Assembly: GCA_963742755.1 (NCBI GenBank)
Contig: CAVUMU010000002.1
Location: 108,987-172,986 of the forward strand
DNA length: 64,000 nt
Source: an uncultured Gemmatimonadales bacterium
GTDB lineage: Bacteria; Gemmatimonadota; Gemmatimonadetes; Gemmatimonadales; GWC2-71-9
Direction of reading: 5' to 3'
The position numbers and the translations under genes were made by a program. The stretch's first letter is position 1. Every line of letters begins with the position of its first letter. This document shows, piece after piece, positions 4,774 through 50,902 of this stretch. The notes below the pieces were generated by a model. The model worked only from the letters and a program-made list of their open reading frames with translations, was not told the origin of the DNA and ran no database searches.

Positions 4774-7557
4774 GTGATACGACACATTGTCAGCACGATA
4801 GCCTGCGCACTCTTGATCGGTGGCACCGCAGCACCCCTGTTCGCGCAGTCCGGAACGCTGCGGGGCACGGTGGCTGACAGCAGCGGTTCGCCGCTTCCCA
4901 ATGCCTCCATCAACATCGATGGCACCGGGCTCCGGACCACTTCGGGCAATCAGGGCGAGTACACCATCCGCGGTGTGCCGGCTGGAAACCGGGTGGTGCG
5001 GGTTCGCCTCATCGGCTTCCAGGCAGCCACTGCTCCGGTCATGGTAGCCGCCGCGGACGAGACCCGTCAGGACTTCACCATGGTCCGGAGCACCGTCCAG
5101 CTGGCGCCGATCGATGTCGTGATCGGATCCCGTGGCCGTCACACGGCCTCCGAAGAGCTTGCGGTCCCCGTGGATGTCTACACCGCCGAGGACATCCAGG
5201 AGCAGGGCAGCACCGAGACCAGCCGGATCCTCGCGACACTCGCGCCCTCGGTGAACTTTCCGGTGCAGACGGTGACCGACGGCACCGATATCGTCCGTCC
5301 GTTCACGCTGCGCGGCCTCTCGCCTGACCACACCCTGGTGCTGGTCAACGGCTGGCGACGCCACCAGACGGCATTGCTCAACACCTTTCCGCTGGGTTCC
5401 CCGGCGGGGTCGAGTGGGGTGGATCTGAACGCGATTCCGGGCGTCGCAATCGAACGGATCGAGGTACTGCGCGATGGCGCCTCCTCCCAGTATGGCTCCG
5501 ACGCGATCGCGGGGGTGGTCAACATCGTGATGAAGGAGGGGGAGTTCTCACCGTTCATTAACACGAGTGCCGGCCGGTACTTCACCGGCGGCTACCCGGA
5601 TGACGGCACCACCGCGGACGTGGGCGGTGGGGTCGGGTTCAAGCTGGGCCGGGGCTCCCTCGGACTCTTCGGGCAGTTCCTCAACCGCGAGCCCACCAAT
5701 CGCGCGTTTCCGGACGGCACTCTGGAGGACCTCAATGGGGTGACCGACGTCGTGGACACCGTCACCGGCGAAATCATTCAGAAGCGCAATGGCGTGCCTC
5801 AGCCGGTCAATCACCTCGGGGACGGTCTCGAGCGGGATCTGCTGTCATTCGCCAACCTGCGCATGCCCCTGAACGAAAGCGGCTCCAGCGAGTTCTACGC
5901 CTTCGGCGGCTTCAGCAACCGGATCGGCACCGGTAACGGCTATTATCGCAAGCCGCTCAACAACCGGAACTGGCCGGCGATCTATCCGAATGGGTTCCTG
6001 CCGGAGTTTCGTCCCAACGTAAACGACTACTCGGGGGGGGCTGGAATCCGCACCAGCGTGGCCGGCTGGGGCGTCGACGCGGGTGGCTCCTACGGCCGCA
6101 GCACCTTCGATTACCGGCTGCGCAACACCCTCAACCCGTCGCTGGGCCCCTGCCTGGTGACACCCTGCGCACCTGGCGCTGACGGTACCCTCGGCACCGC
6201 CGATGACCCAGGTATTACCAATCAGACCAGCTTCGACGCCGGCAGCGTGAAGCGGGGTGAGTTCAGCCTGGGGCTCAACTTTTCCAAGCCGCTCGAGCTC
6301 GGGCTGCGCAATCCGGTCACCCTGGCTTTCGGTGGGGCATACCGCCGAGAGGATTATCAGATCGTCGCGGGTGAGACGGCTTCGTGGATCAACGGCGGGC
6401 ACCTGTCTCAGGATAGCGTGGCCACTCCGGGAGATCTGGCGCCGGCCGGCTCATCGGTCTTCTCCGGTTTCTCCCCGACCGACGCCAGCAGCAACTCGCG
6501 GAACAACATCGGTGCCTACGTCGAGCTGGAATCGGATCTGACCCAGCAGGTTCTGCTCAACATCGCAGGCCGCTACGAGCACTACAGCGACTTCGGCTCT
6601 CGGGTGACAGGCAAGGCCGCACTGCGGGTCCAGCCCAGCAAGCAGCTGGTGTTCCGCGCTGCGGCCAGCACCGGCTTCCGCGCCCCAGGCCTGGCGCAGA
6701 GCTGGTTCAGTCACGTCACTACCAACTTCATTGCTGGCAGCCTGGTCGAGGTCGGCAACTTCCCGGTGAGCAACCGGGCGTCGCAGATTTTCGGGGCCCA
6801 ACCCCTGAAGGAAGAGACCTCCGTTAACCTGAGCGGAGGCGTGGTGTTTTCCGCAACGGACAACTTCACGATCGCCGTGGACGTATTCCGCATCACCATG
6901 GACGATCGCATTCTGCTCGGCGCGACGTATGACGCCGGCGACAGCGTGGTGGCGCGGATTCTGGCCGATTCCGGATTCACCACCATCGGCGGTGTGCAGT
7001 TCCCCACCAACGCGCTGGACACCAGGACTGACGGGATCGACATAACCGGTGATCTCCGCCTGCCGGCGGGTAACGGCAACCTGGACCTCACTGCCTCGGC
7101 CAACTACACCAAAAACAAGATCCGCCGCGTGGGAGGCCTGCCACCGATCCTCCAGGGCACCGGGACATCCTTCACCGGCGCCCTCGACCTGCTGACGACC
7201 CTGGCCATCACCGAGGAGCGTCCGGACTGGCGTGGCACACTCACGGCGAACTGGTCTTCCGGCCGGTTCCATACCCTGGGCCGTGCGTCGTACTATGGCT
7301 CCGGGCGTTCCGCCGAGTTCGGCGGGGTGGTGGGAGAGACGTTCGAGGCCAAGACCCTGTTCGATGCCGAGGTGGGGTATCGCTTCAACCAGGTGAACAT
7401 CTCGATTGGAGCGAAGAACATTTTCGACACCTATCCCTCCAGGCTCCTTGACCTCGACAATAACAACAGTTGGACCTTCCCCTGGGCGGTCACCTCGCCG
7501 TTCGGCTATAACGGGCGGTACATGTATGTCAGATCGGAGATGCAGCTCGGCTACTAG
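4774..7557 (+). CDS. TonB-dependent receptor with CarboxypepD_reg-like N-terminal domain
   Basis: The ORF track gives 4693..7557. I prefer GTG 4774, preceded by GGAGGA, which yields signal peptide VIRHIVSTIACALLIGGTAAPLFAQ. Regulatory-like domain (GEYTIRGVPAGNRVVRVRLIGFQ). Plug motif IERIEVLRDGASSQYGSDAIAGVVNIVMK. Barrel ends MQLGY. Confidence 0.85.
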   Translation: MIRHIVSTIACALLIGGTAAPLFAQSGTLRGTVADSSGSPLPNASINIDGTGLRTTSGNQGEYTIRGVPAGNRVVRVRLIGFQAATAPVMVAAADETRQDFTMVRSTVQLAPIDVVIGSRGRHTASEELAVPVDVYTAEDIQEQGSTETSRILATLAPSVNFPVQTVTDGTDIVRPFTLRGLSPDHTLVLVNGWRRHQTALLNTFPLGSPAGSSGVDLNAIPGVAIERIEVLRDGASSQYGSDAIAGVVNIVMKEGEFSPFINTSAGRYFTGGYPDDGTTADVGGGVGFKLGRGSLGLFGQFLNREPTNRAFPDGTLEDLNGVTDVVDTVTGEIIQKRNGVPQPVNHLGDGLERDLLSFANLRMPLNESGSSEFYAFGGFSNRIGTGNGYYRKPLNNRNWPAIYPNGFLPEFRPNVNDYSGGAGIRTSVAGWGVDAGGSYGRSTFDYRLRNTLNPSLGPCLVTPCAPGADGTLGTADDPGITNQTSFDAGSVKRGEFSLGLNFSKPLELGLRNPVTLAFGGAYRREDYQIVAGETASWINGGHLSQDSVATPGDLAPAGSSVFSGFSPTDASSNSRNNIGAYVELESDLTQQVLLNIAGRYEHYSDFGSRVTGKAALRVQPSKQLVFRAAASTGFRAPGLAQSWFSHVTTNFIAGSLVEVGNFPVSNRASQIFGAQPLKEETSVNLSGGVVFSATDNFTIAVDVFRITMDDRILLGATYDAGDSVVARILADSGFTTIGGVQFPTNALDTRTDGIDITGDLRLPAGNGNLDLTASANYTKNKIRRVGGLPPILQGTGTSFTGALDLLTTLAITEERPDWRGTLTANWSSGRFHTLGRASYYGSGRSAEFGGVVGETFEAKTLFDAEVGYRFNQVNISIGAKNIFDTYPSRLLDLDNNNSWTFPWAVTSPFGYNGRYMYVRSEMQLGY

Positions 7558-9238: not shown

Positions 9239-9568
9239 GTGCTCAAACACCACCTCACTGTCGGCCAGGGCCTGGCCCGGCTTCCCACCCCTGAAGGTGA
9301 GCGGTTCATCGAGCTTTTCAGGCACGGTACGCTGGCGGTGGAGCTCTATGCCCCGCGGGGCAACGATCCCCAGACACCCCACACCCGGGATGAGGTCTAC
9401 GTCGTGGCGCAGGGATCCGGCTATTTCCGGAACGGCAGCGACCGGCACCGCTTTGCTCCGGGTGACGTTCTCTTCGTGCCCGCGCAGGTGACGCACCGCT
9501 TCGAGGAGTTCTCCGACGACCTGGCGGTCTGGGTGTTTTTCTACGGCCCGGAGGGTGGAGAGAGCTGA
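9239..9568 (+). CDS. Cupin-domain protein
   Basis: In-frame GTG 9239, 11 nt after the upstream stop; the ORF track's longer 9089 start overlaps the preceding gene. Cupin-like core HTRDEVYVVAQGSGYF...GDVLFVPAQVTHRF. The stop overlaps the next ATG (TGATG). Confidence 0.7.
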   Translation: MLKHHLTVGQGLARLPTPEGERFIELFRHGTLAVELYAPRGNDPQTPHTRDEVYVVAQGSGYFRNGSDRHRFAPGDVLFVPAQVTHRFEEFSDDLAVWVFFYGPEGGES

Positions 9569-10665
9569 TGGAGCGCACGCTCGGCCGAGAGTTCTACTTC
9601 TCGGAGGAAATCTTTGGCCTCGAGAAGGAACGTATCTTCTGCCGCGAGTGGTTCTGCGCCGGCCGCGAAGAGGATCTGCCTCCGGCGGGCGACTACCTGG
9701 CCCTCGACGTCGCGGGGGAGAGCGTCCTCGTGGTGCGGACCCGGGACGGTACGCTCGCGGCCCACTACAACGTCTGCCGGCACCGCGGATCGCGCCTGGT
9801 GCCGGCGGGTTCCCGGGGCTCTCTGGGCGGCACCATTCGCTGCCCCTATCACTCCTGGACGTACACCCTGGACGGCGCCCTCCGCACTGCTCCTCACCTC
9901 GATGAAGAGGACGGCTTCACCAAGGCGCGCTTGGGACTCAACCCGGTGGGCATCGAGATCTGGGGCGGGTTCTTCTTCCTCAACCTCACTCCGGCCGAAG
10001 CATCCAGCCGCAATTACGGTCTGCTCTCCCAGCTGGGCGAGATACCGGGACGGCTTCGGAGATATCCGCTGGCCGAGCTGCGCTCCGGGCGGCGGATCGA
10101 GTACGAGGTGGAGGCGAACTGGAAGGTCTTACTGGAGAACTACAACGAGTGCTATCACTGCGGGCCGGTTCATCCCGAATTGTGCCGGCTGGTGCCCGCT
10201 TTCAAGCAACGGGGCGGGTCCGACCTGGATTGGGAACGGGGTATCCCGCACCGTGAGGGCGCCTGGACGTTCACCGAGACCGGAACGACTAACCGAAGGC
10301 CGTTCGAGGGGCTCGATGACGATGAGCGGATCCGCCACAAGGGCGAGCTGATCTACCCCAACTTCATGCTCAGTCTCTCGGCGGACCACGTCACTGCCTA
10401 CACGGTCTGGCCCCGAGACGCGGACCACACAACAGTGGTGTGCGATTTTCTCTTTCACCCCTCCGAGATCGCATCGAACGAGTTCGATCCTTCGGACGCG
10501 GTCGACTTCTGGGACCGGGTGAACCGGCAGGATTGGGCCATCTGCGAGAACGTGCAGCGCGGGATGCAGTCGAGGGTGTTCGAGTACGGGTATTACGCGC
10601 CGATGGAGAGCGCGAGTCTCGACATCCGCCGGTACATAAAAGAAAAGCTGGGAGGTGAGAAGTGA
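9568..10665 (+). CDS. Rieske [2Fe-2S] non-heme-iron oxygenase, alpha-subunit type
   Basis: 365 aa. Rieske motif CRHRGSRLV...CPYHSWTY. Mononuclear-iron motif NYNECYHCGPVHPEL. No beta subunit or reductase gene is adjacent. The last codons and the TGA are supplied by the heptamer repeat. Confidence 0.85.
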   Translation: MERTLGREFYFSEEIFGLEKERIFCREWFCAGREEDLPPAGDYLALDVAGESVLVVRTRDGTLAAHYNVCRHRGSRLVPAGSRGSLGGTIRCPYHSWTYTLDGALRTAPHLDEEDGFTKARLGLNPVGIEIWGGFFFLNLTPAEASSRNYGLLSQLGEIPGRLRRYPLAELRSGRRIEYEVEANWKVLLENYNECYHCGPVHPELCRLVPAFKQRGGSDLDWERGIPHREGAWTFTETGTTNRRPFEGLDDDERIRHKGELIYPNFMLSLSADHVTAYTVWPRDADHTTVVCDFLFHPSEIASNEFDPSDAVDFWDRVNRQDWAICENVQRGMQSRVFEYGYYAPMESASLDIRRYIKEKLGGEK

Positions 10666-15230: not shown

Positions 15231-16057
15231 GCCCCAGGATCGTGGCCCCTCCGCGTGTGGCGTTGCTCGGCGTCTGCTACGACGGCAGCTCCTCATATCT
15301 GCGGGGCACTGCCGGGGCTCCGCCCATGATCCGTGAGGCGCTCTGGTCCGAGGCGGGGAATCCATGGGCCGAGCTCGGCATCGACCTCAGTACCGCCGCG
15401 CTGGATGACGAGGGCGACCTGGCGCCGGCCCCGGACGAGGACCCGGCGCAGGTTCGCCTCTTGATCGAGCAGGCGGTCAGAAGAATCGCCGAATCCGGAC
15501 GACGACCACTGGTGCTGGGCGGGGATCACTCGATAACCTATCCGGTCCTGCGTGGCTTTCGGCCCTTCCATCCACGGCTGAGCATCCTCCACTTCGATGC
15601 TCACGGAGATCTCTGGGATGAGTTTGAGGGCGACCGGTACTCCCACGCCTGCCCGTTTGCCCGGATCATGGAGGAAGGCTTGACCGACCGACTGGTCCAG
15701 GTGGGTATCCGCACCATGAATGGGCATCAGCGGGAGCAGGCCAAACGCTTCGGGGTGGAAGTGATCGAGATGAAGGATTGGCGCGACGGGATCAAACTGG
15801 AGTTCGACACGCCGGTCTATGTGTCGTTTGATCTCGATGTCATCGAGCCCGGGCTGGCGCCGGGCATCTCCCATCGCGAAGCGGGTGGCTTCTCGGTGCG
15901 CCAGGCGCTAGCGGTGGTACAGTCGCTCACGGCACCGGTGGTCGGTGCCGACTTCGTCGAGTTCAATCCGGCCGCCGATCAAACCGGTGTAACCGCCGCC
16001 GTTAGCGGCAAGCTGGTCAAGGAGCTGGCCGCCCGCATGCTCATGGAGACGCTATGA
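15227..16057 (+). CDS. Agmatinase/arginase-family ureohydrolase (guanidino-compound hydrolase)
   Basis: 276 aa. Mn-binding motifs GGDHSITYP, HFDAHGDL and SFDLDVIEPGLAPG. GTGA overlap with actP. Confidence 0.85.
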   Translation: MSPRIVAPPRVALLGVCYDGSSSYLRGTAGAPPMIREALWSEAGNPWAELGIDLSTAALDDEGDLAPAPDEDPAQVRLLIEQAVRRIAESGRRPLVLGGDHSITYPVLRGFRPFHPRLSILHFDAHGDLWDEFEGDRYSHACPFARIMEEGLTDRLVQVGIRTMNGHQREQAKRFGVEVIEMKDWRDGIKLEFDTPVYVSFDLDVIEPGLAPGISHREAGGFSVRQALAVVQSLTAPVVGADFVEFNPAADQTGVTAAVSGKLVKELAARMLMETL

Positions 16058-17483
16058 CCTGCCTTGTCCGCCGGCTGGCTCGACTGGCCGCACTCCTGTG
16101 CGCTCTCGCGATGCCCGCCGCAGCGCAGGCGCCGGCGCTCGATTACGACCGCCTTCGCGACGAGACCGCCCAGCGGCTGTCCGAGTATATCCGGATCAAC
16201 AGCAGCAATCCGCCGGGCAACGAGCTGGCCACCGCCCGCTGGCTCAAGGAGGTGCTGGCCAGGGAGGGGATCGAGGGACAGATCCTCGACACCGCCGAGC
16301 TGGGAGCGGGACGGGCCAACTTCTACGCTCGGCTGAGGGGGAACGGCTCCGGGAAAGCGATCGCCCTGGTGCACCATATGGATGTGGTGCCGGTATCCCG
16401 GGAGTTCTGGACCGAGGATCCATTCGCGGGGCTGATCAAGGACGGCTATGTCTGGGGCCGCGGCGCCCTGGATATGAAGGGCCACGGCATCGTCCAACTG
16501 ATGACTCTGATCGCCATCAAGCGCGCGGGCATCCAGCTCAACCGCGACCTGGTGTACATCGGCAATGCTGATGAGGAGTCGGGTGGACTGGGAGCCAAGA
16601 CCTTCATCGTACGGCACCCTGATCTCATCAAGGACGTCGAGTATCTGCTGACCGAGAGCGGTGGAAGTCGGGTTGAGAAGGGAAAGTCCGATGGTTCGGC
16701 CTGAACGTGGGGGAGAAGCGGGCGTATTGGCAGAAGCTGGTGGTGAAGGGCAAGGCGTCCCATGGCTCCAGGCCAACTCCCTACAACCCGGTGCCTCGCC
16801 TCGCGCGAATACTGACGCGCGTTGCCGCATGGGAGACGCCGTTACGACTCACGCCCGCAGTGGATCGCTACCTCAGGGCGGCGGCGCTCGCCGAAACCGG
16901 TGAGCACCGCCGCTGGCTGGCCGACCCGGCACGGGCCCTCGAGTCTGCCCGGGGGCGAGCCTGGCTTCTCAGCGAGCCAGAGCGCAACGCGCTGTTGCGG
17001 AACACGATTTCTCCGACTGTCCTCGTCGGGTCCAACAAGACCAACACCATACCGCCCGAGGCCTCCGCGGAGCTCGATATCCGCCTGCTTCCCGACCAGG
17101 ACACGGTGGCTTTCCGGCGAGAGCTCCTTCGGGTGATCGGTGACACCGGCTTCACGCTAACATCGATCGGAGACATGGCACCTCCCTTCTCCGCGCCGCT
17201 GGATACCGAAATGTCCCGCGCCATCGAGCGTACCGCTGCGCGCCTCCTCCCGGGGGTTCCATTTGCGACCACGACCAGTACCGGTGCGACTGATCGGCCC
17301 TATTACGCGGGCGCGGGGATCATCTGTTATGGGATCGATCCGGCTCTCGTGGATATTGAAGAGGTCCGGCGAGGCGTCCACGGCAATGATGAGAGGGTCT
17401 CGATCGAGAACCTCGGTTTCGGGCTCAAGCTGTATGCGGGAGTGATTCAGGAGATGCAGGCGGTAAAAAAGCGTGAACGGTGA
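16054..17483 (+). pseudogene. M20-family metallopeptidase interrupted by one frameshift (ORFs 16054..16704 and 16707..17483)
   Basis: The N-terminal half carries VHHMDVVPV, GRGALDMKG and NADEESGG. The frame breaks in GAGAAGGGAAAG (about 16675-16690). The other frame continues as KVRWFGLNVGEKRAYWQKLVVKGKASHGSRP, the expected continuation of an M20 dimerisation-domain boundary. Confidence 0.75.
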
Positions 17484-17536
17484 AAAGTTAACGGTAAACG
17501 GGGGCGGTGGAGGCCGGTTCACTGTTCACTGTTCAC
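17473..17536. repeat. Heptamer-array inverted repeat, GTGAACR family (arms 17473-17500 and 17516-17536)
   Basis: Left arm GTGAACG GTGAAAA GTTAACG GTAAACG, loop GGGGCGGTGGAGGCC, right arm GGTTCAC TGTTCAC TGTTCAC. The stop codons of both convergent genes lie inside the arms. Confidence 0.9.
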
Positions 17537-18666
17537 ACCTTTGCACTTCCATGTCCTAATGCCTTCAGCACCTCTCGATCGAACTGAACCGACAGACTCT
17601 CCCGCTTGGAGTACGGCCCCGGCTGGTACGCCCGGGACTGCACCCCGAGCTGGCTCTGCTCGCAGATGTGCCAGTCCTGCCGGTTGGTCATGTCCCAGAA
17701 CGCGATCCCGTCTTCCGGGTCGTGAGCGGGATTGTTCAGACTGTCGGGATGAAAGAGCCAGGAACAGAGGATCCTGGTGCGATCCGGCGCCTCGGGCCAC
17801 AGGGTGTGGAACATCACATAGTCGGGGTGCAGGCTGAGCAGCATGTTGGGAAAGACGGCGTAATAGTAGACCCGGTTCAGGTCTTCCTCAGGCAGGTCGC
17901 CCACCATGACCCCGCATGACCGGCCACTCATGGTCAGGCTCTGGTGGCCCTCGTTGATCACCATGAAGCCCCCGGTGACCGGGCCGTTCACCAGGTCGTT
18001 CTCCCCGCTCGTGGGCGGAGTGAGCTTTGCGAGGGGCGGGTGTACCGGACCACAGTGATAGCACTCGGAGTAGTTCTGGAAGAGCAGCTTCCAGTTGGCC
18101 TTTACCTCGTATTCCATGGTGCGGGCCACCGTCAGATTCGACATGTTGAACCGGTCGAACCGGCCGATGAGCGATTGGCAGGCCTGAGCGAAGGGCTCGG
18201 CATCCTCCGCCAGATTGATGAAGAGAAATCCTTCCCAGCTCTGAATGCCGACGGAATGCAGCGGATAGTCCGCCTTGGCAAAGCCCTCGATCTCGGACGC
18301 CGAAGGCGCCCCGATCAGTCGGCCATCCAGGGCGTAGGTCCAGGCATGATAGGGGCACTGAATGGTCTCGGAAAACCGGCCGGTGTGCTGCTCACAGAGC
18401 CGGGTCCCGCGATGCCGACAGACGTTGTAGTAAGCTCGCAGGGTGCCGCCCTGATCCCGCAGCACGATGATGCTCTCGGTCCCGACCTGCTGGACCAGGT
18501 AGTCCCCGGGCCCCGCGATGCGGTCCTCTCGCCCCACGCACAGCCATCGACGGGTGAAGATTCGCTCGGTCTCCTCGGCGAAGATCTCCGGGGCAACGTA
18601 GTAGCGGCGGGGCAGGGTCTTGGCCCCGTCAATGGCAATTTGGGTGGTCTTGACGAACGATGTCAC
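17533..18666 (-). CDS. Rieske [2Fe-2S] non-heme-iron oxygenase, alpha-subunit type (paralogue of 9568..10665)
   Basis: 377 aa. CRHRGTRLC...CPYHAWTY and NYSECYHCGPVHPPL. Colinear similarity to the first Rieske protein (e.g. EVKANWKLLFQNYSECYHCGPVHP versus EVEANWKVLLENYNECYHCGPVHP). Confidence 0.85.
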   Translation of the reverse strand: MTSFVKTTQIAIDGAKTLPRRYYVAPEIFAEETERIFTRRWLCVGREDRIAGPGDYLVQQVGTESIIVLRDQGGTLRAYYNVCRHRGTRLCEQHTGRFSETIQCPYHAWTYALDGRLIGAPSASEIEGFAKADYPLHSVGIQSWEGFLFINLAEDAEPFAQACQSLIGRFDRFNMSNLTVARTMEYEVKANWKLLFQNYSECYHCGPVHPPLAKLTPPTSGENDLVNGPVTGGFMVINEGHQSLTMSGRSCGVMVGDLPEEDLNRVYYYAVFPNMLLSLHPDYVMFHTLWPEAPDRTRILCSWLFHPDSLNNPAHDPEDGIAFWDMTNRQDWHICEQSQLGVQSRAYQPGPYSKRESLSVQFDREVLKALGHGSAKV

Positions 18667-49789: not shown

Positions 49790-49896
49790 GCGGGGCAGCG
49801 GGGCGGCGGGGCAGAAAGGCGATCGGTATCGGAAATCGAAAGGCCGGCTGGATTCCGCCGGCCCTCTTGTCACTGCCCCGCGGCCCCGCCGCTCGC
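49790..49896. repeat. Octamer-array inverted repeat, GCGGGGCA family (arms 49790-49814 and 49873-49896) enclosing a terminator-like hairpin
   Basis: GCGGGGCA GCGGGGCG GCGGGGCA G ... CTGCCCCG CGGCCCCG CCGCTCGC. An inner hairpin GGCCGGC/GCCGGCC (49842-49863) is followed on the minus strand by TTTCGATTTCC, which makes it the likely terminator of the sigma gene. Confidence 0.85.
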
Positions 49897-49901
49897 TTCC
49901 C

Positions 49902-50800
49902 TCAGGCCGCGCCCCAGAACCCCCGGAGCGAGCGCACATCCGGGGAATCTCGCAGCTTCTCGAACGCGCGCTCCCGGATCTGCCGGATGCGCTCGCGAGT
50001 GACCCCAGCAGCGCGCCGATCTTTTCCAGCGTCAGGGCTTCGGATCCCTCCTCGAGACCGTAGTACAGATGAAGAATTTTTCTCTCGCGAGGCGTGAGGT
50101 GCCGTTGAACAGCCGTGTCGATAAATTCGCGCATGAAGTGGAACATCGGTTATCTCCTCGATCTCGATACCGCCGGTTACGCCGGCGAAACGCTCGCCAA
50201 GTGTGCTGGCCTCCCGATCGGACCGCTCCACCGGTGCGTCGAGCGAGATTCGGTTGCGATGTCATGCATGAGCGGAGCGGAACGCCTCGAGCGTATCGTT
50301 GAGCGCGATGGCAATCTCGGCGTCGGTGGGCTCCCGCCTGAGCTCCTGGGCCAGAGAAGCTCTTGGCCCGGGACAGCTGGACCAGCGCGGAATTCTGATT
50401 CAACGGGATCCGGACTGCTGCGAGTCTGCTCCGCAAGGGCCTTCAGCACCGCCTGGCGGACCCACCAGACCGCATAGGAGATGAATTTTACCCCGTGGTC
50501 GGGATCGAATTTCTTGACCGCCTTGAGCAGGCCTTCGTTGCCGATGGCGACCAGTTCGGACAGGTCGAGCCCGTGTCCCTGGTACTTCTTCACGTAGGAG
50601 ATCACGAACCGCAGGTTGGCCGTGACCAGCCGCTCGGCCGCGACCTCGTCACCCGCCAGCGCGCATCTGGCCAGCCGCTTCTCCTCGTCGGGATCGGAGA
50701 TCATCGGGAGCTTCTGGATATCGAGCAGGTATTGATCGAACGCGCCGGAAGGAGTAGAGCGGGCAAACGGCCGGGCTTTCCCGGTACGGACGACGGTCAT
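49902..50800 (-). pseudogene. Sigma-70-family RNA polymerase sigma factor, disrupted by at least 4 frameshifts and an in-frame TGA
   Basis: Conserved sigma regions are readable only by hopping frames. Region 2 (LRFVISYVKKY, FISYAVWWVRQAV) runs 50800 to about 50417. VRIPLNQNSALVQLSRAKSF runs to about 50356. LAQELRREPTDAEIAIALNDTLEAFRSAHA is followed by TGA at 50262-50264. ISLDAPVERSDREASTLGERF...IEEITD runs to about 50145. LTPRERKILHLYYGLEEGSEALTLEKIGALLG runs to about 50005. VTRERIRQIRERAFEKL reaches the stop at 49902. Confidence 0.8.
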
Positions 50801-50873
50801 AGACAACCCCGGCAGAGTTGAAATGCGCTGCGATTATGGCTGCGGTGACCAGACTATTCGGAGAGGATGAGGC

Positions 50874-50902
50874 AATATAGGAATAGCGTTGCGCGCGGTC
50901 AA
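50874..50902 (-). promoter_or_regulatory. Near-consensus sigma-70 promoter (TTGACC-17 nt-TATATT) with an upstream A/T tract
   Basis: On the minus strand: TTGACC (50902..50897), a 17-nt spacer, TATATT (50879..50874), preceded by AAAGATTTTTTTGC. It lies about 75 nt upstream of the sigma gene ATG 50800. Confidence 0.55.

Follow-up and report, generated by a model that had tools for sequence, protein, structure and literature searches.

The window analysed here, a stretch of 64,000 nucleotides from an uncultured soil bacterium of the Gemmatimonadales (contig CAVUMU010000002.1 of assembly GCA_963742755.1), carries on its minus strand, from 50800 to 49902, a gene of the sigma-70 family whose length of 899 nt equals 3n+2. 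An ATG at 50800 starts the frame that encodes regions 1.2 and 2; past codon 128 this frame is lost, other frames carry regions 3 and 4, and frame +2 is the one that reaches the stop codon at 49904-49902. That sigma regions 2, 3 and 4 appear in order but in changing frames had been described in a sequence-only reading of the DNA, and the description holds for the frames as well as for the conceptually repaired protein, on which Pfam places Sigma70_r2 at residues 58-127, Sigma70_r3 at 139-196 and Sigma70_r4 at 233-283. As encoded, only r2 is kept in the first open reading frame, together with a fragment of r4 in the last. The intact form of the encoded protein is a sigma-70 factor of the 297-residue type. 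The coordinates of the gene, its lesions and its presumptive expression signals are collected in Table 1.

Table 1. Features of the sigma factor locus in the window, with the bases found there and in relatives at polymorphic insertions
Feature	Position	Strand	Basis or remark	Window	Relatives
Sigma-70-type promoter, TTGACC-17 nt-TATATT	50874..50902	-	Sole match in the region, 10/12		
5' leader (~73 nt) and ribosome-binding region before the ATG	50801..50873	-	Near-identical to closest orthologue (L098)		
Intact 5' coding sequence (regions 1.2 and 2, aa 1-128), frame a	50417..50800	-	Sigma70_r2 at aa 58-127		
Aberrant central stretch (region 3, 3.2 linker, start of region 4)	50008..50416	-	Holds all indels		
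Lesion 1, +A	50416	-	Found in none of 18 clade relatives or 9 more distant orthologues	CGCAGC[A]GTCC	
Lesion 2, +1	50355..50356	-		TT[C][T]CTGG	TTC or TTT
Lesions 3-4, compensated -1 (50268) and +1 (~50257)	50247..50269	-	Alignment to relatives; alternative placement of the +1 as +2 at 50258-7 and -1 at 50249		CAT CGG ATG ACN TCN ACC GAR GTC TCG
In-frame +3, GTA before ACC	50178..50180	-	Clade alignment		
Lesion 5, extra T	50133..50135	-	Frameshift alignment, coding-sequence alignment, blastn	CT[T]CATG	
Compensated pair, +A at 50116 and -1 at ~50105-8	50105..50116	-	blastn against 7 syntenic relatives		
Lesion 6, Gly codon without its third base	50007..50008	-		CTG GG- GTC	C, T or G at the site
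Intact 3' coding sequence (region 4.2, C-terminus, stop codon), frame a+2	49902..50006	-	No base unseen in relatives		
Possible weak terminator, GC-rich hairpin followed by TTTCGATTT	49842..49863	-	Stem GGCCGGC/GCCGGCC in the minimum-free-energy structure		
Tandem alleles, TT[C|T]	50355			TTC-T	TTC or TTT
Tandem alleles, TC[G|C|A]	50258-6		All three relatives' alleles (G, C, A) present	TC-G-C-A-ACC	TCG, TCC or TCA
Tandem alleles, [GTA|ACC]	50180-75		Both codons present	GTA-ACC	GTN (Val; clade B and L081) or ACC (Thr; clade A)
Tandem alleles, CT[T|C]	50133			CT-T-C	CTC or CTG

For comparison, orthologous DNA was assembled from 80 loci of GTDB representative genomes, from 21 JGI metagenome contigs retrieved by a degenerate pattern for the lineage-specific N-terminus, and from the two contigs on which the nearest proteins are encoded. 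No contig of the same species was found in the scans of the GTDB representatives and JGI data, the best match having 88% DNA identity. Eighteen orthologues with 80-88% DNA identity form the window's own clade, hereafter clade A; an open reading frame of 894 nt is present in 17 of them, alignment of the coding sequences revealed no indels among the 18, and the more distant orthologues examined all have open frames of 891-897 nt. Clade A reads ...ALVRMSRAKSF...ERQDRGASTFGERVAG... where a second group, clade B, reads ...QLIKLARAETV...DRSDREASTLGERFAGV..., the two clades diverging most in the central region of the gene. The gene order Cob-adenosyltransferase, aroB, sigma, LonN, glcD/E/F is common to the window, clade A, clade B and distant loci, and the clade A and clade B genes are therefore positional orthologues, as is the gene of the window.

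Several relatives have peculiarities of their own. In the orthologue of the close relative L084 (JGI Ga0136617_10000303, at ~7060-7065), an in-frame TGA stands where region 4.2 otherwise has the invariant Arg of IRQIRERAFEKL, and everything downstream is perfectly conserved; this TGA may represent a true nonsense allele or be erroneous. L081 (JGI Ga0157216_10098812, at ~820-890; protein P0003) has ~60 nt of the acidic linker of region 3.2 swapped in frame for the unrelated AEVAHFGSKATLAFPELIKQSD; the replacement brings with it 26 unique differences, and 23 of these fall at codon positions 1-2. L082 (GCA_033612695.1; protein P0008) joins an N-terminus of clade A type (MTHVRTGKARPFARSTPSG...RCALAGDE) to a remainder of clade B type, and is either the product of natural recombination between the clades or a short contig of chimeric origin.

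Gemmatimonadales orthologues of the window sigma are intact and 80-92% identical to it. A first conceptual repair matched thousands of ~297-residue Gemmatimonadales proteins labelled RpoD/SigA over their full length, with 76-87% identity; after a better repair, 273 of 297 residues are identical to those of the closest orthologue, L098. Against the NCBIfam model TIGR02393 (RpoD_Cterm), whose cut-off for a bona fide primary sigma RpoD is 354 bits, the repaired protein scores 197 bits, below that cut-off as are the intact orthologues P0002 (211 bits) and P0008 (202 bits), and two other RpoD-like paralogues of Gemmatimonadales outscore the window type with 268 and 233 bits. Because the window type scores lower than both paralogues and is the least RpoD-like of the three, we dropped the argument that this is a housekeeping sigma whose essentiality would require it to be intact. 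On these scores we regard the gene as a strongly conserved alternative sigma factor of the RpoD-like type, despite the database label RpoD/SigA, and as probably not the essential housekeeping, or primary, sigma factor. At least three types of RpoD-like sigma paralogue occur in Gemmatimonadales genomes (L023, L026, L039 and L030, compared with the window gene); the 289-residue type, found in L030, has the top score on RpoD models, and one type is 300-350 residues long with a Lys/Ala-rich N-terminus.

Upstream of the gene, both promoter hexamers are unchanged in eight relatives, and the leader consists of long invariant blocks in nine sequences from genomes that are otherwise ~80-85% identical. 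The larger segment 50801-50960 on the minus strand, which comprises an upstream block TTTTGTGATGTGGAAAG and a T-run, the promoter and the leader, differs hardly at all from its counterpart in L098 and is almost invariant across nine genomes, and this near-invariance suggests a conserved regulatory leader; a search of Rfam gave no credible match in or around the sigma gene, leader included. The hairpin beyond the 3' end of the gene has a z-score of just -0.9 and is absent from the terminator-scan list.

Lesions particular to the window were placed by protein-guided frameshift alignment and by alignment to the 18 orthologous coding sequences, with blastn against seven syntenic relatives also used. 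The gene contains at least eight frame-breaking indels and one in-frame insertion of three bases, all inside 50416-50008, a stretch of ~410 bases; the sequence-only reading had counted four to five indels and had put the fourth at 50143-50147, whereas the alignments set it at ~50133 (CTTC instead of CTC). The TGA at 50262-50264, which that reading took to be in frame, is ATG-ACN read out of frame between a -1 and a +1 that compensate each other, an alternative that it had itself offered and that alignments to relatives bear out. Undoing the second compensated pair, at 50116 and 50105-8, changes DTAVQ to DRLFQ, which is the family consensus according to residue counts over 120 homologues. The reading frame is thus disrupted, as would be expected of a genuine pseudogene.

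The concentration of these lesions in one gene is a striking local excess, as had been claimed from the letters alone. A frame HMM based on codon usage, combined with Pfam on ~55 open reading frames, revealed one other split gene in 63 kb, an M20 peptidase, and at this background of one per 63 kb the Poisson probability of at least six lesions in 899 nt is 1e-14. Across the 16 kb covered by syntenic relatives, no other window-specific coding indel of a length other than 3n was found. Absence from orthologues is here combined with a strong local excess over the contig, the combination expected of an artefact. Further candidates from the frame HMM, at 13.4-15.2, 36.8-38.2, 19.4-21.8 and 52.1-53.9 kb among others, were rejected when Pfam identified them as separate intact genes. 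The split M20/M25/M40 peptidase, on the plus strand, is represented by the frames 16006-16704 (M20 profile positions 2-81) and 16677-17483 (M20_dimer and M20 positions 112-205), the probable cause of the split being the loss of one base in GGAAAG-TCC near 16690. In the same part of the window, two paralogous alpha subunits of Rieske ring-hydroxylating oxygenases lie 7 kb apart, at 9568-10665 (plus strand) and 17533-18666 (minus strand), with a cluster of amine oxidase, DAO, permease, DUF485-SSF, arginase-family and M20 genes between them.

Within the sigma gene, the changes are sharply confined. When the gene was aligned to a profile of 17 clade A sequences, with a base present in any relative counted as a match, 42 unseen events emerged (29 substitutions, nine inserted bases and four deleted bases), of which 40 fall in 50416-50008, that is, in 409 of the 899 nt (P = 6e-12). 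This central segment holds 27 of the 29 substitutions unseen in the 17 closest relatives, contrary to the earlier statement that the gene has no degenerate stretches. The 5' 384 nt contain just two unseen bases, both at third positions (P = 4e-14 at the central rate), and the 3' 103 nt contain none (P = 4e-5 at the central rate). Thirteen indel bases, in ~10 events, stand against 27-29 substitutions, a ratio of roughly 1:2-3 in which about one third of the differences are indel bases, and such a ratio is far outside natural coding or pseudogene divergence. At codon positions 1 and 2, the relatives diverge by 0.018 centrally and by 0.017-0.021 in the flanks, as against 0.096 centrally and 0.004-0.03 in the flanks for the window, and residues never or rarely seen in 120 homologues all lie at positions 141-230. 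Constraint is therefore not relaxed over the whole gene and its signals, as it would be in a genuine pseudogene, since the flanks, the promoter and the leader are conserved. Among 5.8e9 proteins, identity to the repaired central segment nowhere exceeds 81%, in a search that returned mostly fragments and few candidates sharing words with it, and no protein matches the frameshifted tail; the idea of a natural lineage carrying the central segment of the window was rejected on this best match of just 81%.

The substitutions in the central segment are not randomly placed with respect to the variation among relatives. Of 26 window-unique substitutions, 22 occur at the 71 columns that discriminate clade A from clade B and four at the other 175 (odds ratio 19, P = 5e-10), and 17 of these 22 carry the clade B base (P = 3e-5). 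In the flanks none of 63 clade-discriminating columns is changed, and in the intact 5' part none of 47. Along the gene the clade states run AAAA...B...B...BBBBAABB...B...A, with B-like patches 1-45 bases long, so that a second template appears to have marked the central segment in patches of 1-45 nt. The longest of these patches, a B-like tract of ~45 nt at 50222-50181, retains clade A-like bases at some synonymous sites; single codons mix the two states (CAG between CGG and AAG, AGG between GGG and AAG, CTC between GTC and CCC), and whole codons are swapped (AAT to GCG, CAG to TCC). At four insertions the window holds in tandem the alternative alleles of its relatives (Table 1), the deletion at 50007/8 hits a polymorphic third position and the deletion at 50268 adjoins one. 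Alleles of a second lineage, and both alleles side by side at indels, are the signature expected of mixed templates. When 105 loci were searched for exact 14-mers of a possible donor, a single one, from L007, was obtained. Apart from this word, the odd patches have no long exact matches in the sampled clade B, and the putative second template would therefore belong to an unsampled lineage.

Taken together, these observations make it likely, in our judgement, that the frameshifts are errors of assembled consensus or polishing that arose from mixed templates over an intact gene, and that the organism most likely keeps an intact alternative factor of the sigma-70 family, of 297-298 residues, between aroB and the gene for a Lon N-domain protein. 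Mutation within one genome has no access to the alleles of other lineages, and a mixed pile-up does, which favours a consensus artefact. The course of events would be that, while a long-read consensus was being called, polished or collapsed, reads or contigs of at least two related populations were piled onto this highly conserved gene, the templates being the genome's own clade A type and a clade-B-like orthologue of a related population. Where the templates agree, in the 5' third, the 3' end and the promoter, the consensus would come out clean; where they differ, in region 3, the 3.2 linker and the start of region 4, a column-wise consensus would produce a fine mosaic, and ambiguous alignments would leave stray bases inserted or lost, in many cases so that a polymorphic site shows its alternative alleles next to each other. 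The lesions, their confinement, the second-lineage signal, the tandem alleles and the clean background are observed, and the pile-up itself and the sequencing platform are inferred.

Mixing of this kind has precedents, as the merging of related strains into a single consensus by long-read assemblers has been reported (PMC8302730), and so have indel frameshifts in long-read assemblies (PMC9262707). Like the window, strain-collapsed long-read metagenome assemblies show frameshifting indels in conserved genes, errors where templates differ and mosaics of haplotypes (PMC8302730, PMC9262707); the lesions of the window differ in lying mostly outside homopolymers. Among the loci compared here, the long-read metagenome contigs L001, L019, L104 and L105 have aroB, LonN, glcD/E and sigma each in several pieces, as generic frameshift noise. 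The neighbours of the sigma gene are split in these Nanopore loci, whereas the remaining 63 kb of the window are nearly free of errors. This very cleanness speaks against an artefact, in that the error process would have had to act very locally. The clade A-like synonymous sites within the B-like tract and the lack of sampled sequences matching the putative second template also count against it, and so does the steadiness of relative identity along the gene, where a contig join would show as a switch. Since relative identity to L102 and L086 does not shift anywhere in the gene, a chimera of contigs from two organisms joined within it was rejected; the strongly template-like character of the substitutions led us to reject random noise from raw reads and a gap filled at low quality as well. 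Three explanations had been listed in the sequence-only reading without commitment to any; the consensus or assembly hot spot caused by mixed strains is favoured by the second-lineage patches, the tandem alleles and the pristine flanks, whereas locally elevated indel mutagenesis is unsupported, the substitutions being template-like, and recent inactivation in the form of uniform decay is rejected, since the lesions are sharply confined to 50416-50008.

Inactivation could have come about in another way, and we consider this the foremost, if unlikely, alternative to an artefact of mixed templates: a ~410-nt tract of a diverged and decayed homologue, from a second copy or foreign DNA, would have replaced the middle of the gene by recombination or conversion and left the cell with a truncated fragment of regions 1.2-2 alone. 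The lesions do stand in the sequence, and they form a contiguous tract with second-lineage, clade-B-like states; as the gene probably does not encode the essential primary sigma, its real loss is biologically possible, and a score below the RpoD cut-off together with two more RpoD-like paralogues in the order indicates that such a loss may be tolerated. The nonsense codon in the L084 orthologue and the resemblance of L082 to a natural recombinant of clades A and B point in the same direction. However, the A and B states alternate base by base inside codons, unlike recombination tracts, the insertions at the junctions duplicate both alleles, and the donor itself would have to carry ~3% indels; moreover, no such donor or intermediate lineage occurs among 5.8e9 proteins, and the promoter and leader are still perfectly conserved.

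Comparison with known systems bears on the same question. Pseudogenes of sigma factors are exemplified by attenuated rpoS alleles and by the sigma pseudogenes of reduced genomes, and real pseudogenes accumulate changes over their whole length, with substitutions far exceeding indels. The window gene resembles the pseudogenes of dispensable sigma factors in that the frame of a regulator is interrupted by frameshifts and its domains remain recognizable, but its changes are limited to 409 nt, about one third of them are indel bases, and flanks and promoter are untouched. Interspecies mosaic genes such as the pbp genes of Streptococcus and Neisseria consist of in-frame blocks that are hundreds of bases long. 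With these mosaics the window gene has in common that it combines two orthologue lineages in a patchwork, but its patches are 1-45 nt long, switch inside codons and break the frame at their junctions. With these points weighed, it is doubtful that the lesions are real and that a one-step import of a short diverged, decayed or mosaic tract inactivated a conserved alternative sigma gene; in that event a promoter-driven fragment with sigma region 2 only would remain and might still bind core RNA polymerase.

An improbable explanation is that the central segment is naturally divergent and in frame, through acceleration of region 3 and the linker, and that unrelated errors, for example from a patch of low coverage, added the indels. 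The enrichment of substitutions at clade-variable sites is as in functional divergence, and clades A and B differ most in the central region. Yet relatives with larger synonymous distances hold this segment nearly invariant, two whole-codon triple changes are unlikely at such divergence, and neither the exact coincidence of the indels with the substituted stretch (P ~4e-4 to 4e-3) nor the duplication of known alleles by the insertions is explained.

Far less credible still is that an old pseudogene decayed neutrally and uniformly, or that error-prone repair struck locally in a burst (hypermutation), in spite of the many lesions within one gene. The flanks are pristine, including the 103 nt past the last frameshift, which are expected to be untranslated (P = 4e-5) and should have decayed too, so that uniform decay of an old pseudogene is ruled out; the substitutions are template-like and not random (P = 5e-10 and 3e-5), and, as regards hypermutation, a change density of ~10% exceeds known polymerase error rates by orders of magnitude. 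Since the changes include indels and are not specific to adenine, mutagenesis of the diversity-generating retroelement (DGR) type was also rejected.

Programmed ribosomal frameshifting or recoding that restores the protein can be practically dismissed: nothing favours it beyond a gene readable across frames, and it would require at least eight shifts in both directions, without a common slippery motif, at sites that are shifted in 0 of 27 orthologous loci examined and so lack the conservation expected of them. In prfB and dnaX a single conserved slippery site is common to orthologues. As in these genes, a conserved protein is spread over more than one frame in the window; unlike them, the window has at least eight shift sites, all unique to its sequence.

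If the lesions are an artefact of mixed templates, the appropriate annotation would be an intact alternative sigma factor of the RpoD-like type instead of a pseudogene, 50416-50008 would be flagged as low-confidence consensus, and the locus would illustrate the damage that a mixture of related populations can do to one conserved gene when the contig around it is clean. Were they real, a regulator under strong purifying selection in every other sampled Gemmatimonadales lineage would have been lost, and the window would hold the sole known loss of a sigma factor that is otherwise universal and syntenic in Gemmatimonadales, a matter of modest specialist interest that would raise the question of which regulon the organism has given up.
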